DNA from: a virus
Lineage: Duplodnaviria > Caudoviricetes
DNA length: 54,957 nucleotides
Direction: 5' to 3' (one strand)
IMG/VR virus record: IMGVR_UViG_3300028586_000752
Coordinates: 1-54,957 of that record
Part shown: in pieces, positions 2,805 to 13,643 of the stretch
Position numbering within the stretch: position 1 is the first letter of the stretch
How the letters are laid out: the number at the start of each line of letters is the position of its first letter
The notes under the pieces: generated by a model
Told to the model about the DNA's origin: nothing
The model's input: only the letters and a program-made list of their open reading frames with translations
The model's database searches: none
Program-made: the position numbers and the translations under genes

Positions 2805-3416
2805 CTACAACCGACCAGCCCGGCCCGATGCTTTCGGTGCCGGGCTTGCCTTTTTCGACTCAGCAAGCAACGCTTCACGCTCCAGGTCGGCCGGCTCGTG
2901 AAACCATGCGGAGTTGATCTCGTGTTGGATGAGCAGGAAGAGGTCGCCGCTCCGCAGCATATCGCCGTCCTCCAGCACTCTGAACGCCGGGATGTTGAGG
3001 TCTTGATCTGAGAGCAGGCCATGCTGATGTCCGTCGACGGCCTCCCGAACCAGGTCGTTGGCGAAGTCGATCCCCATCCGCCAAAGGATCTCCCCAAGCT
3101 CCGGCCAGTATTTGATTTGAACAGCCCGCCCCTGAGCGTTCTTGTCGATCGCGGTATGGACAGCGTAGAAGCTCTTCGTTTGGTCGCGGCGGTCCCGGCA
3201 GTGCAAGCTGAACAGGTGGCCGTCGGTGGTGATCAGATAGATCCAATCATCCATCCTCACCGAGGTCTCAGGTCGGGCAAGCACGGCGCCGGCTTCATGC
3301 TTCGCGAAATCCCTGCGCACATACTTACCGTCGATGAATGGCGTTACGCTCCGAAGCCATGAGCGCCACTCGTATTCGTCCATGGACCGCACGTCTAGTT
3401 CGTCTTGATCGCTCAC
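2805..3416 (-). CDS. Hypothetical protein with C-terminal GRL tag
   Basis: GGAGG then GTG at 3416 (start uncertain, the ORF is open to 3533); ends EREALLAESKKASPAPKASGRAGRL. Confidence 0.7.
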   Translation of the reverse strand: MSDQDELDVRSMDEYEWRSWLRSVTPFIDGKYVRRDFAKHEAGAVLARPETSVRMDDWIYLITTDGHLFSLHCRDRRDQTKSFYAVHTAIDKNAQGRAVQIKYWPELGEILWRMGIDFANDLVREAVDGHQHGLLSDQDLNIPAFRVLEDGDMLRSGDLFLLIQHEINSAWFHEPADLEREALLAESKKASPAPKASGRAGRL

Positions 3417-3740
3417 CACGCCTCCACGAGAATGGAAAGACTTGATGGTAGCAGAGAGCGTCAGCGCGGTTGCAAGAAAAACAAAGCCCCCGGGTAGGAG
3501 GCCTTGAATCATAATCGGAGCCTGCGACATCATCCGCAGTCATGCTCCGAGGGGTTCCCACGCCCCTGATTTTTCCCCAACGACGCGCCCGGCCGTTTGA
3601 CACTCGCTACTCGGCCTGTGTAAAGCGTAGCGCTGAGACGGAAGCATTGTCAATGGGAAACATGGAGCCATGATTTTGCGCGATGCGATCTTGAACATTG
3701 CGCGCTATAGTCGGCGCCAAACCCACCACCAGGAGTCGAC

Positions 3741-4211
3741 ATGGACGACATCTACAACCCGGCGGCACAGATCGCGTTCGGGCAAGCGCGATCAGCCAAT
3801 CTCCAAGCCAGCTTCGCACAGCAGACGGCCGACGCTGCGGAGTCGAAAGCCCGGATCGCCCAAGAAAGCCTCGACATGCTTCGAAGCCAGTCGGCGGGCA
3901 GCGAGGCCCACAACCGACGGATGATCTCAGCCCTAAGCCGGCAGGTCGAAGCATTGCACGAGAAAATCTACGGCTGTCAGCTTTTGATCCAAGAGCGGGA
4001 TCGGCTGATTCTTGAATGGACGCACTCGCACGAGACGTTCAAGTTTCTCGCTCGGGATCTTGGGACCATGCTTGGCGTTGACCGGGAGGAGCGGCAACGG
4101 CTTTACGACGAGCTGGCCGTGGGACTGGCGGAGGAAGACCCATCGTTCGCCAACACGGAGATCCTCAAAAAAGCAAAAGCCCGACTCGCGGGCTCGGGTG
4201 AGGCTGGCTGA
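3741..4211 (+). CDS. Hypothetical coiled-coil protein
   Basis: AGGAG SD before ATG; helical, heptad-like sequence. Confidence 0.65.
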   Translation: MDDIYNPAAQIAFGQARSANLQASFAQQTADAAESKARIAQESLDMLRSQSAGSEAHNRRMISALSRQVEALHEKIYGCQLLIQERDRLILEWTHSHETFKFLARDLGTMLGVDREERQRLYDELAVGLAEEDPSFANTEILKKAKARLAGSGEAG

Positions 4212-4215
4212 GGAT

Positions 4216-4446
4216 TCACAATCGGCCAGCTTTCTTGGGCTTCGAGCCCGGCTCACTGCATGCGGCGCGTAAGGCTCGGGCCTGTTTGTGGGCATCCCAC
4301 TTGGCTTGAATACGAGCATGGCGATTCGGATCAGTGAATGCTCGCGTCATCACGAAACTCGATCTTGCGATATAGAGGCGATACTCAGAAGGGCTCATGC
4401 TGAGACGCTCAGACTCGCTCGGGACGACAAATCGAATATCCTCCAT
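4216..4446 (-). CDS. GRL-tag array protein 9
   Basis: TGATG coupling to the upstream gene; ends QAKWDAHKQARALRAACSEPGSKPKKAGRL. Confidence 0.75.
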   Translation of the reverse strand: MEDIRFVVPSESERLSMSPSEYRLYIARSSFVMTRAFTDPNRHARIQAKWDAHKQARALRAACSEPGSKPKKAGRL

Positions 4447-4871
4447 CAAAGCCTCCCTTTCTTTCCATGCGAGCCCGTCTCAATGCATGCGGTGCGCAAG
4501 GCTCGGGAGGCTTTACGAGCATCCCAAGCGCCTTGAACTTGCTTGGCTGTGCGGATGCGGGTGAGCCCATCGACTGATCGGACGAAGTCTGGATGATTTG
4601 GGTAACTCGACATCCCAACGCCACGGCCGGCAAACCACGAGGCAGAGCCGCACTCGGACCGAATCCATCGCCGAAATCTGGCAATCCTCCCAACTACGAT
4701 CTTGGAGGCACACTCGACCCACTCCCCATGCGAATGATCGATGTAGAACTGTTCGATATCCTCCCGCGTCATCAACCCCATCACGATATCCTCCCGCGTC
4801 ATCGACTCTATCACGATACCCTCCCGCGTCATCGACCCCATCCAGACACCCTCCCGCGTCATTGACCCCAT
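4446..4871 (-). CDS. GRL-tag array protein 8 with 4 N-terminal 10-aa repeats
   Basis: [10 protein letters not shown]-type repeats; ends QGAWDARKASRALRTACIETGSHGKKGRL; TGATG coupling at both ends. Confidence 0.75.
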   Translation of the reverse strand: MGSMTREGVWMGSMTREGIVIESMTREDIVMGLMTREDIEQFYIDHSHGEWVECASKIVVGRIARFRRWIRSECGSASWFAGRGVGMSSYPNHPDFVRSVDGLTRIRTAKQVQGAWDARKASRALRTACIETGSHGKKGRL

Positions 4872-4873
4872 CA
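4754..4873. repeat. Tandem repeat, 4 x 30 bp
   Basis: Units cgatatcctcccgcgtcatcaaccccatca, cgatatcctcccgcgtcatcgactctatca, cgataccctcccgcgtcatcgaccccatcc, agacaccctcccgcgtcattgaccccatca. Confidence 0.95.
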
Positions 4874-11728: not shown

Positions 11729-12085
11729 TTACAGGCGGCCGGCCGACGACTTGCGGGGTTCAATCGTTGGCTGAATCGCTTGAAGCATGCACAGCGCCTC
11801 CCAGTCCGCGAATTCAGACTTCACAAGCGGGAGGTTTTCGAGGTAAAGCTTCGAGAGCATCTGGCCGAGATGCTCACGCGGTCGGGCTAAGCGCATTGCT
11901 GCCCGCAAGTAGGGTGCCGAACGGCGGTTGTCGAGGAAGTGGACGCACATCAGGCTCCGAAAACCGGCTGTATGCGCTAGGAAGGCTTTGGCGTATCCGT
12001 TCTCGCCGGCGCGGATCTCGACTTGGAAGCCCTCGGCTTCGATCGCGAGAAGGTCTTGATTTGGTGTGCGGGCTTTGCCGGCCAT
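11729..12085 (-). CDS. Hypothetical protein with GRL tag
   Basis: GGAG SD, ATG 12085; ends ADWEALCMLQAIQPTIEPRKSSAGRL. Confidence 0.7.
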   Translation of the reverse strand: MAGKARTPNQDLLAIEAEGFQVEIRAGENGYAKAFLAHTAGFRSLMCVHFLDNRRSAPYLRAAMRLARPREHLGQMLSKLYLENLPLVKSEFADWEALCMLQAIQPTIEPRKSSAGRL

Positions 12086-12281
12086 GGGTGGGTCTCCGTG
12101 TAGTGCAGGGGTCTTCGATGGATTCACCATCTCGCACGCCCATGCACTAATCAACCTCCGCACATCGATAAAGAAAGACCGCCAGATAGGCGGCCTGTTT
12201 GGTGTTGTGAGCGGTCAGTTCAGCGTCGCTTTTCGATCTGCCGCCGCATCTCCTGCAGGATTTCGAGCGTCTCGCGATCCA

Positions 12282-12599
12282 TCAGTGCGCCCCCACGGAG
12301 TGGCCGGCGGGGCAGGCGGCATTGACGACGATGAAATGGGGGATGCCGATTTCGCAAAGCGTTTGGTGCAGCGAGTCGAGCGAGCCGAAGCGCCGCGTCC
12401 GATTTCGAGCGCTGGCAAGCATCATGCCGTTCACTTCGAGCGTCCACGAGCCCTTGGAAGACGTCGAGCGAGCGCCTTTGCCGTCGGCGATCGCCACCGC
12501 TTTGAAGAGGTCTTGCAAATCCTTGCGCCCGGAATTGCGTGCGACGCTTACCAGCGAAGCCAGGTCGGACGCGGTGATCGCTTTTTGTTTCTCTGCCAT
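12282..12599 (-). CDS. Small plasmid-type protein (ParC-like/partition-associated family)
   Basis: LASARNRTRRFGSLDSLHQTLCEIGIPHFIV resembles the LxxxRxxxRxFxTLDxxxxxLxxxGIxxFxV family found on plasmids. Confidence 0.45.
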   Translation of the reverse strand: MAEKQKAITASDLASLVSVARNSGRKDLQDLFKAVAIADGKGARSTSSKGSWTLEVNGMMLASARNRTRRFGSLDSLHQTLCEIGIPHFIVVNAACPAGHSVGAH

Positions 12600-12635
12600 G
12601 ATTTTTCCTTTTTCTTAGATGGCGTGGGGGAGCGA

Positions 12636-13061
12636 TCAACGCTTCCAGGGCTTTCCGCGGCCGACAGTGAAGACGGGGATGCCGTTGCCGGCGGCGTCGG
12701 GCAGCGCGGAGACGACTTTGAAGTCACGCTTGAACGCTTCTGCACGGTCAGCGAACTCGGCGTGCTGAATCATCTCGTTGAACGAAAGCTCGAGAATTTC
12801 GGCGATTAAGCCCATCAGCGGGTCGACGATCTTCGCTTGAAGCGGGTGGTCTGGGTTGCTGACCGCTGCTGCAGCTTCGTCCTCAGGAAGTCCGAGCATG
12901 ATCGCGACTTCCGTCGCAGTGTCTTGGGCTTTGCGCAGGCCGCGATCGAACATCGGCTTGTTCATGAAGATTTCAGCGAACATGCGCTCGCTGGGGCTCA
13001 GCTCGGGTTCTTCAGGCTGGGTGCTCGGCAGCTTGTTGCCACTTGCATCGACGATTTTCAT
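12636..13061 (-). CDS. Hypothetical protein
   Basis: AAGGA SD, ATG, coding-like composition, co-directional operon. Confidence 0.65.
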   Translation of the reverse strand: MKIVDASGNKLPSTQPEEPELSPSERMFAEIFMNKPMFDRGLRKAQDTATEVAIMLGLPEDEAAAAVSNPDHPLQAKIVDPLMGLIAEILELSFNEMIQHAEFADRAEAFKRDFKVVSALPDAAGNGIPVFTVGRGKPWKR

Positions 13062-13073
13062 GGGTTTTCCTTT

Positions 13074-13643
13074 TTAGAGGGATTTGGCTTTGGAAGACGC
13101 GTGGGGCGCGGCAGGGACTTCATCTTTGAGCACATGCGCTTCCCAGCGCGCGAGCGACTCCGGGTCGGACGTGGTGAATTCGCAGCGGACCAGGCGCACC
13201 GCGAGATCGGTGTCGCCGCCAGCGAGAGCGTAGTTCTCATAGAGCGACTGGCGGAAATTGGCGAATGAGCGGGCAAACTCTTCAACGAAGATGCCGCCGG
13301 GGGAGCAGAACTGACCGAGCGCGCGGCATGAAAAAGAAAGCTCCATCACGATCGCCGGTGCTCGATAGGCAACGGCGGGTTCGGGGAGGATGGCGACAAG
13401 GTGCATGCAATCTTTGTCGAACAAGCTGTTCTCAACCGTCAGATCGAACGCCACGCGGGCCAGCTCCATCTCGGTTGGCATCAGCTTCGCGGCACGCATC
13501 GCGTTGCGCATCATACGAAGCTGCTCTTTGGTTTTGTGAAGCTCGTGCGCGAGCCTCAGGACGCGGCCGACAGACTCCGGGGTCTCAGCCGCCTCCGTCG
13601 AGCTCGTCGCGTTCATCGCTGAATATTCATCGTAGGGGTTCAT
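13074..13643 (-). CDS. Hypothetical protein with variant C-terminal tag
   Basis: AAGGAG SD; ends ARWEAHVLKDEVPAAPHASSKAKSL. Confidence 0.7.
   Translation of the reverse strand: MNPYDEYSAMNATSSTEAAETPESVGRVLRLAHELHKTKEQLRMMRNAMRAAKLMPTEMELARVAFDLTVENSLFDKDCMHLVAILPEPAVAYRAPAIVMELSFSCRALGQFCSPGGIFVEEFARSFANFRQSLYENYALAGGDTDLAVRLVRCEFTTSDPESLARWEAHVLKDEVPAAPHASSKAKSL

Follow-up and report, generated by a model that had tools for sequence, protein, structure and literature searches.

Twelve small open reading frames (ORFs) on the minus strand of a viral genome of 54,957 bp (IMG/VR record IMGVR_UViG_3300028586_000752, analysed over its entire length and referred to below as the window) end in a common C-terminal tail, Gly/Ala-Arg-Leu, which stands immediately before the stop codon in all twelve. 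The record has the overall look of a prophage, with an integrase gene at the left end of the window in a Pfam scan, and the tagged ORFs lie in a minus-strand arm that extends leftward between about 17.8 and 2.8 kb, with a Mob_Pre-like gene first, and is presumably early, judging by gene layout. We conclude that the tail is very probably a genuine C-terminal peptide tag, and that its codons double as a Shine-Dalgarno (SD) sequence where another gene follows directly. The explanation as a whole, in which the tag is also read by one common partner and this partner is a protease of the ClpX type, is given a probability of about 0.35.

A common tail on twelve minus-strand ORFs

All twelve ORFs pointed out in a preliminary description of this DNA are present. 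Eleven of them end in GRL (stops at 2805, 4216, 4446, 4871, 5149, 5580, 5831, 6118, 6375, 10572 and 11729) and one in ARL (6587). The six-frame ORFs of at least 50 aa number 418; GRL, with 12 cases versus 4 for the runner-up, is the tripeptide that most often ends them, and [GA]RL endings are seen 13 times, against 0.81 expected from residue frequencies. The thirteenth such ORF, 51622-52428 on the minus strand, also ends in GRL and was rejected as a member; it is probably a shadow ORF because its GC content by codon position (0.72/0.56/0.66, versus 0.69/0.47/0.77 for the overlapping plus-strand ORF) fits a shadow frame. A Lys or Arg, besides the Arg of the Arg-Leu end, is found within the last eight residues of 11 tails, the exception being g5149. 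As had been stated for the virion and lysis genes, the tail was not seen on late genes: a [GA]RL end was found in 0/20 of the plus-strand late or other ORFs listed. Basic ends as such are also found on other early genes of the window (KPKA, RSRGPR, KPWKR and RKQKQK).

The tagged proteins had been described as mostly unrelated, which overstates their diversity. While g2805, g5149, g10572 and g11729 have only the end in common, the C-terminal 30-50 aa identify g4216, g4446, g5831, g6118, g6375 and g6587 (the WDAR family) as paralogues, and the last 21 aa of g4871 and g5580 are 62% identical. Pfam scans took in 52 ORFs of the window and PHROGs scans 22. Neither yielded a family for ten of the twelve tagged proteins (those of the array and g2805), and the Pfam scan, the only one that applies to the remaining pair, yielded none for g10572 and g11729.

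Three looser variants of the tail had also been proposed. The one at 13074 (KAKSL) is strengthened, K-S-L being the main tail of a related element, L001, that is described below. The end at 10009, RSRGPR, is unlike the tail. At 8889 there is no minus-strand stop; this position is the start of a plus-strand gene, 8889-9383, which encodes a stand-alone LPD29 domain protein (Pfam E 1.9e-9) with the C-terminus AARARAMAL.

The tail codons form a Shine-Dalgarno sequence at coupled junctions

The junction word GGGAGGCTNTGA occurs eight times on the minus strand and not once on the plus strand, and all eight copies are found in the twelve tails. The codon usage noted earlier was thus recovered: Gly-Arg-Leu is written GGG AGG CTN in eight genes, and GGT CGG TTG, GGC CGA TTG and GGC CGC CTG, none of them SD-like, in g2805, g4216 and g11729, respectively. 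The stop codon overlaps the next start in eight of the twelve genes, as TGATG in six (4446, 4871, 5149, 5831, 6118 and 10572), GTGA in one (6375) and ATGA in one (6587); there is no such overlap at 5580, 4216, 2805 and 11729. Of the eight genes with the word, seven have a stop that overlaps the next start; the earlier account needs correcting at 5580, where the word has no overlapping start. At the six TGATG junctions, GGAGG stands 5 nt ahead of the ATG; at 6587, AAGGGAG stands 8 nt ahead, and at the g6375/g6118 junction the spacing from SD to start is just 2 nt. In nine late genes, AGG makes up 3.5% of 374 Arg codons and GGG 18.6% of 591 Gly codons, and we therefore conclude that the GGG AGG spelling was chosen for the SD sequence. 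The combination of SD sequence and stop/start overlap is, from its sequence features, ordinary translational coupling.

At the DNA level the junctions make up a repeat family (D1), with identities of 79-89% between some neighbouring tails. The figure is 89% over 81 nt for g6375 and g6118 (family D4), and 79% for the tails of g5580 and g4871 (family D5). Since the word is present at 5580 without a coupled start, copies of the junction must also have spread as DNA (families D1 and D5).

Five of the tails (4446, 5149, 5580, 5831 and 10572) place an SD-like run directly before CTT TGA, an arrangement that we take to resemble the programmed +1 frameshift site of the RF2 gene. Programmed frameshifting was rejected as a general explanation, as the Leu codon of the remaining tails is CTG, CTC, CTA or TTG and a +1 shift does not lead into the reading frame of the next gene; the likeness is probably incidental.

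Selection on the peptide

The three genes without a coupled successor, g2805, g4216 and g11729, all keep GRL in codons that form no SD sequence. When uncoupled g4216 is compared with its coupled paralogue g4446, the last three codons differ at five of nine bases and every change is synonymous; over the 28 codons upstream, the differing codons comprise 13 that change the amino acid and 3 that are silent. A second, independent pair of paralogues is found in L001, where an uncoupled gene (15190-15510) and a coupled, SD-spelled one (15510-15872) both end in K-S-R-S-L. Their nine base differences in these five codons are all silent, and include a switch of the Ser codon from AGC to TCG. The penultimate Ser of L001 tails is encoded by both codon classes (TCN six times, AGY nine times), and terminal TTN codons in the window, L001 and a further relative, L002, are TTR (Leu) in 10/10 cases and TTY in none. 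The silent differences, the use of both Ser codon classes and the restriction to TTR are as expected under selection on the amino acids, and not under selection on the nucleotides. The earlier proposal that the peptide itself is under selection, beyond the needs of the SD sequence, is thus upheld by synonymous recoding in uncoupled genes, by its replication in L001, by retention of the tail in homologues, and by a predicted structure that places it in an exposed coil behind a helix.

Homologues and related elements

A profile of six WDAR paralogues was searched against 1.84 billion representative proteins (E up to 0.001) and gave 14 matches: two from the window itself, ten small external proteins and two long proteins, one of which (P0005) is an unrelated repeat protein and was discarded as spurious. 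Eight of the ten small external relatives end in GRL, one in SRL and one in KKM. In all of them a variable N-terminus precedes a helix with the motif (I/V)QA(R/D)WDAR(K)E(A)RAL, which a linker of 8-15 residues joins to the tail. For g2805, four external homologues were found at 44-60% identity, one of them source-named Massilia; SGR[AG]GRL ends all four, and no other part of the protein is conserved as well as the tail region. An external homologue of g11729 was not found. Searches with tblastn using the g2805 product (P0016) and the WDAR protein P0006 returned no match in 72,556 plasmid and 50,697 phage records, the protein atlas had no usable match for P0016, and scans of viral contigs with g2805, A2, P0004, P0008, A6 and A9 returned no relative.

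Scans of genome and metagenome contigs gave nothing at first; second scans gave four contigs, L001 to L004, the last of which (Lysobacter) was a false positive within a purD-like gene and was dropped. L001 comprises 18.6 kb of a 22-kb metagenome contig with 45% GC. It has four families in common with the window: Mob-like (30% identity over 207 aa, E 4e-29), g10009-like, LPD29 and WDAR. It also carries genes for TrfA-like, Hfq and H-NS proteins and a tyrosine integrase; virion genes are not apparent. By this gene content it resembles a plasmid-like element that is integrative and mobilisable. Tails of the form [KRNGAS][SR][LI] end 21 of the 101 L001 ORFs of at least 50 aa, against 1.0 expected, and most of them are K/R-S-L, with some GGRL, RARL and RRL. 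Its small coupled genes form two divergent arrays over positions 1-18583. The LPD29 protein of L001 (16759-17358, minus strand; Pfam E 1.5e-11) bears the tail KSRSI. The g10009-like family, acidic and helical, is encoded at 10009-10572 in the window and 11503-12009 in L001 (32% identity over 102 aa, E 6e-15) and has no Pfam or PHROGs family.

In L002 (31% GC), five tandem WDAR genes stand directly upstream of ejection-protein genes, and L003 (35% GC) has one WDAR gene. The region in question (789-6953 of L002, a low-GC phage contig) has, after the five WDAR genes, an ORF of 155 aa and then the ejection-type genes, whose matches read 'DNA ejection', 'released from the phage upon host infection' and internal virion protein with a lysozyme domain. 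The coupled tails of L002 and L003 are KRRRM, KRRRI, RRKRM and KKTRRM, and the uncoupled ones KRKKRL and IKKRL. The preliminary description had named homologues that keep the SD nucleotides and lose the amino acids as the result that would speak against it. This was observed in part: both contigs keep a purine-rich SD sequence, and four of their six tails end in R-R-M, R-R-I or K-R-M; it was not observed for the tag as a class. Since the low-GC relatives have these ends, exact GRL is specific to a lineage. What persists across lineages is a basic stretch, followed by Arg or Ser and last by an aliphatic residue that forms the free C-terminus.

Predicted structure of the tail

An AlphaFold model of g4216 (20-row alignment; predicted local distance difference test score, pLDDT, 80.6) has a simple helical hairpin as its overall fold, with a confident helix at residues 40-63 that contains the WDAR motif, followed by a coil of 13 residues (64-76) with pLDDT of about 57-70. 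A model of the g2805 family is of low confidence (mean pLDDT 58.2); its last 13 residues score below 50 and are its least confident part. In the g4216 model the tail is predicted to be an exposed coil at the extreme C-terminus.

A candidate reader of the tag

We propose that the tag is an exposed basic linker, rich in Gly, Pro and Ser, which ends in Gly/Ala-Arg-Leu-COOH. Where a direct successor gene is present, Gly-Arg is spelled with the rare codons GGG AGG, so that the tag doubles as the SD sequence of the junction GGGAGG CTN TGA TG; where there is no successor, ordinary codons are used. The free Leu carboxy-terminus behind the basic stretch would be read by one common partner, which may be a host AAA+ unfoldase/protease of the ClpX type, by comparison with the C-motif-2 tag of the phage Mu transposase. 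Such a reading would give the early protein set a limited lifetime after early transcription ends, for instance once this element, which carries an integrase, has passed its lysogeny decision; clearing of the set by a shared weak degron would suit a temperate element.

The motif is always at the very end of the protein, uncoupled genes included, which argues for recognition of the free carboxy-terminus together with an aliphatic side chain, and we consider it probable that the reader recognises a free C-terminus. In the bacterial cytoplasm, the known readers of a free C-terminus with an aliphatic residue are chiefly AAA+ proteases. The further step, that the reader is a ClpX-like protease, is argued by exclusion and by likeness, and is put forward tentatively, as our leading candidate. 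The likeness is to the MuA degron CILEQNRRKKAI, used as a model of ClpX C-motif-2 in PMC12723719: like the tails, the end of MuA (RRKKAI) is short, basic and unstructured and closes a phage protein. It has a basic run, a small residue and an aliphatic last residue. The tails described here have Leu last in 12/12 and a further Lys or Arg in the last eight residues of 11, but their penultimate residue is Arg and not a small one, and Gly and Ser are abundant.

Several observations count against this explanation. The exact tripeptide is not kept in the distant L002 and L003, where the end tracks an AGGAG SD sequence, and the K-rich stretches upstream of it may simply mirror A-rich initiation regions. 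SD-type codons are kept at 5580, where there is no coupled start. For g4871, g5149, g5580 and g10572, the support for their being genes consists of ORF length and tight coupling. No reader came out of the analysis. Finally, a pentapeptide screen in E. coli described only ssrA-like sequences as strong C-terminal degrons, and the residues depleted among active tags were Arg at the last two positions (by ca. 55%), Gly and Ser (ca. 50%), and Leu or Val at the last position (ca. 40%) (PMC10862746). As these are exactly the residues of the tails, the tag would be at best a weak or adaptor-dependent degron.

Alternative explanations

The same screen lends itself to another reading, namely that nothing reads the tail and that a basic, Gly/Ser-rich C-terminus that is hard to grip is favoured as a cap, for expression or for protection from attack at the C-terminus, with no specific partner. 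Arg, Gly, Ser and terminal Leu are depleted among functional degrons, and the authors suggest that unfoldases grip Gly and Ser poorly (PMC10862746); the basic ends on other early genes of the window point in the same direction. Composition leaves unexplained, in turn, why Arg-Leu is found in 12/12 tails, SGR[AG]GRL in all five members of the g2805 family, and K-S-R-S-L through nine silent changes, and we regard this explanation as quite improbable. It is very improbable that the peptide is a functionless by-product of one junction word (SD, stop and start) that is copied along with genes and read in frame. The word is indeed exact in eight of twelve tails, the junctions belong to a DNA repeat family with tails up to 89% identical, the word is kept at 5580 with no coupled start, and L002 and L003 hold the SD sequence while the amino acids change. 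A by-product would not account for GRL in non-SD codons in three uncoupled genes, for two independent paralogue pairs whose differences are synonymous in 5/5 and 9/9 cases, for Ser in both codon classes in L001, or for a tail kept in 4/4 of the diverged g2805 homologues; and very recent copying of the uncoupled tails, to which it would have to resort, is contradicted by the five of nine bases that have changed. The tail might instead dock on a different conserved hub, on nucleic acid or on an element-encoded protein not yet recognised, a fairly unlikely alternative to which we nevertheless give some weight. The tail is found in elements of 31%, 45% and 59% GC, and its reader should therefore be either widely conserved or carried along; the window and L001 have the four families listed above in common. 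This alternative has no candidate either. The Pfam scans of the 52 window ORFs revealed no PDZ, TPR or similar domain that binds C-termini, and binding to nucleic acid would not need a strictly C-terminal position.

An export label, which would hand small establishment or anti-defence proteins to a DNA-moving machine, is improbable in our view. Two such machines had been considered in the preliminary description, the coupling protein of a type IV secretion system (T4SS), which was its leading guess, and the capsid interior. The C-termini of the tagged proteins carry a net positive charge and are unstructured in the g4216 model, and signals of VirB/D4 substrates are likewise Arg-rich, positive, unstructured C-termini on unrelated cargo (PMC10025392), though they are not known to have a fixed last tripeptide. 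A relaxase-like gene is present in the element, and the Mob_Pre-like gene is common to the window and L001. L001, furthermore, looks integrative and mobilisable, and its tagged proteins include an LPD29 domain protein; this domain belongs to the polyvalent-protein set for which delivery along with DNA was proposed (PMC5512222). The T4SS version is left unsupported, since the window, a tailed prophage, revealed no T4SS or coupling-protein family in either set of scans (a helper in the host is possible), and neither the WDAR nor the g2805 family had a tblastn match in the plasmid or phage records. Moreover, the Mob_Pre-like gene in the window and L001 reflects one shared descent and no independent co-occurrence, neither Mob-like protein has the tail, and the 65 plasmid records with a Mob-like gene are mostly of 2.7-2.8 kb, which leaves no room for arrays of this kind. 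Against capsid loading stand the position of the tagged genes in the leftward early arm, on the strand opposite the virion genes, and the absence of the tail from the 20 plus-strand ORFs listed; this version is kept alive by the L002 neighbourhood, with WDAR genes next to ejection-protein genes, and by a giant protein of the window with a DarB-like match (below). One tail is also hard to fit to two different machines. That the tail is an address label common to mobile elements that form a clade but look unrelated (a tailed prophage, and a plasmid-like element that is integrative and carries a Mob gene), by which small proteins are exported with the DNA, strikes us as speculative and quite unlikely. 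Were it true, the phage set would be taken into the capsid along with the giant DarB-like protein, the set of the plasmid-like relative would take the conjugation channel of a helper, and the exported proteins would act in the new cell before any gene expression.

Relation to known systems

Translationally coupled junctions, with the SD sequence inside the upstream ORF and ATGA or TGATG overlaps, are known, and so are C-terminal recognition tags; the eight stop/start overlaps of the window are of the former kind. They differ from plain coupled junctions in that one word is used eight times in one frame and in that the tripeptide is kept synonymously where there is no coupling, which is not expected of a mere SD sequence. 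What is new is a single tag on a dozen early proteins that is SD-spelled where needed and respelled where not; a literature search found no description of such shared, SD-doubling tails. A flexible linker with a very short C-terminal motif, read by one receptor, is also the principle of encapsulin cargo peptides, of the HK97 protease C-terminus and of the eukaryotic peroxisomal targeting signal type 1 (PTS1, of the SKL type). GRL, ARL and SRL presumably match the PTS1 pattern in a formal sense. The likeness is one of principle only: the genes described here are early and on the strand opposite the capsid genes, and bacteria have no peroxisomes.

If a dozen early proteins that are otherwise unrelated do carry one tag of three residues, the fate of the whole set would depend on a single factor, of the host or of the phage. 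The case also shows one short sequence acting as protein signal and as ribosome-binding site, the two being separable by comparison of coupled and uncoupled copies. In practice, the tail offers a handle for spotting early genes that belong to no assigned family and may act against host defence.

Coordinates of the tagged genes

The tagged genes and associated features are listed in Table 1. Downstream of g4216 there is, besides the terminator-like hairpin, a convergent ORF, and g2805 likewise faces a convergent plus-strand ORF, which ends at 2798. For g2805, version P0016 starts at 3383, and the homologues point to a start at about 3416-3419. The gene after g11729 begins 30 nt downstream and has an SD sequence of its own.

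Table 1. Tail-bearing ORFs of the window and associated features, in order of position
Feature	Coordinates	Strand	Description
g2805	2805..3533	-	Longest ORF 242 aa; end SGRAGRL (GGT CGG TTG TAG); no coupled gene
Terminator-like hairpin and T-run	4177..4195	-	Just 3' of g4216; consensus match only
g4216	4216..4446	-	76 aa; WDAR family, last gene of the array; end KPKKAGRL (GGC CGA TTG TGA, no SD)
g4446 (P0001)	4446..4871	-	141 aa; WDAR family; end HGKKGRL (GGG AGG CTT TGA TG)
g4871	4871..5149	-	92 aa; end RTTQGRL (GGG AGG CTG TGA TG)
g5149	5149..5562	-	At most 137 aa, start uncertain (TTG 5562 or ATG 5508); end GSGTQGRL (GGG AGG CTT TGA TG)
g5580	5580..5831	-	83 aa; end RKQKGRL; junction word without overlapping start
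g5831 (P0002)	5831..6118	-	95 aa; WDAR family; end NKQKGRL (GGG AGG CTT TGA TG)
g6118	6118..6378	-	86 aa; WDAR family; end KKMGGRL (GGG AGG CTC TGA TG)
g6375	6375..6590	-	71 aa; WDAR family; end KKTGGRL (GGG AGG CTG TGA); GTGA overlap with probable GTG start of g6118
g6587	6587..6808	-	73 aa; WDAR-family paralogue; end SSKGARL; ATGA overlap with start of g6375; SD AAGGGAG one codon further upstream
g10572	10572..11048	-	158 aa; end AKKQGRL (GGG AGG CTT TGA TG); coupled to g10009
g11729	11729..12163	-	Longest ORF 144 aa (version P0021: 118 aa); end RKSSAGRL (GGC CGC CTG TAA)
g13074	13074..13643	-	189 aa; looser variant; end SSKAKSL, non-SD codons; K-S-L class as in L001

Other features of the window

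The Mob_Pre-like gene at the head of the minus-strand arm (16543-17823) matches its Pfam family with E 4e-6 and 27.1 bits, versus a cut-off of 25.5. In tblastn, its product had no match in the 50,697 phage records and matched 65 plasmid records, mostly enterobacterial plasmids, in which the annotation is 'plasmid recombination protein'. The virion genes form a plus-strand block at 19.9-43.7 kb with terminase, portal, major head protein, SU10-type adaptor and a protein of 2051 aa. The last of these (37560-43715) has PHROGs matches to giant proteins and, over residues 1622-1908, a match to a 'DarB-like antirestriction' family. Megablast of positions 2700-13700 revealed no close relative in the 50,697 phage records. 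The sequencing runs containing the stretch comprise one DNA run only, from a leaf-litter metagenome that may be the origin of the record, with no RNA run listed.

Three minor features of the arm concern DNA repeats and junctions. The 5' end of g4446 (window 4754-4874) consists of four tandem 30-bp repeats (D2) that encode MTRE(G/D)-type repeats; each unit contains ATG and GGGAGG (4765, 4795, 4825 and 4855, minus strand), as if the start of the gene had been duplicated four times. A second type of junction is found in the upstream part of the arm (12597-12613, 13059-13075 and 13652-13668) and consists of a stop, AAAAAGGAAAA and ATG; here the SD sequence comes after the stop, and the shared tail is absent. 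Lastly, a direct repeat of 34 nt (11107-11140 and 12171-12204; copies 79% identical), with a GC hairpin inside that has a terminator-like score on the minus strand, flanks the g11729-g11096 pair.

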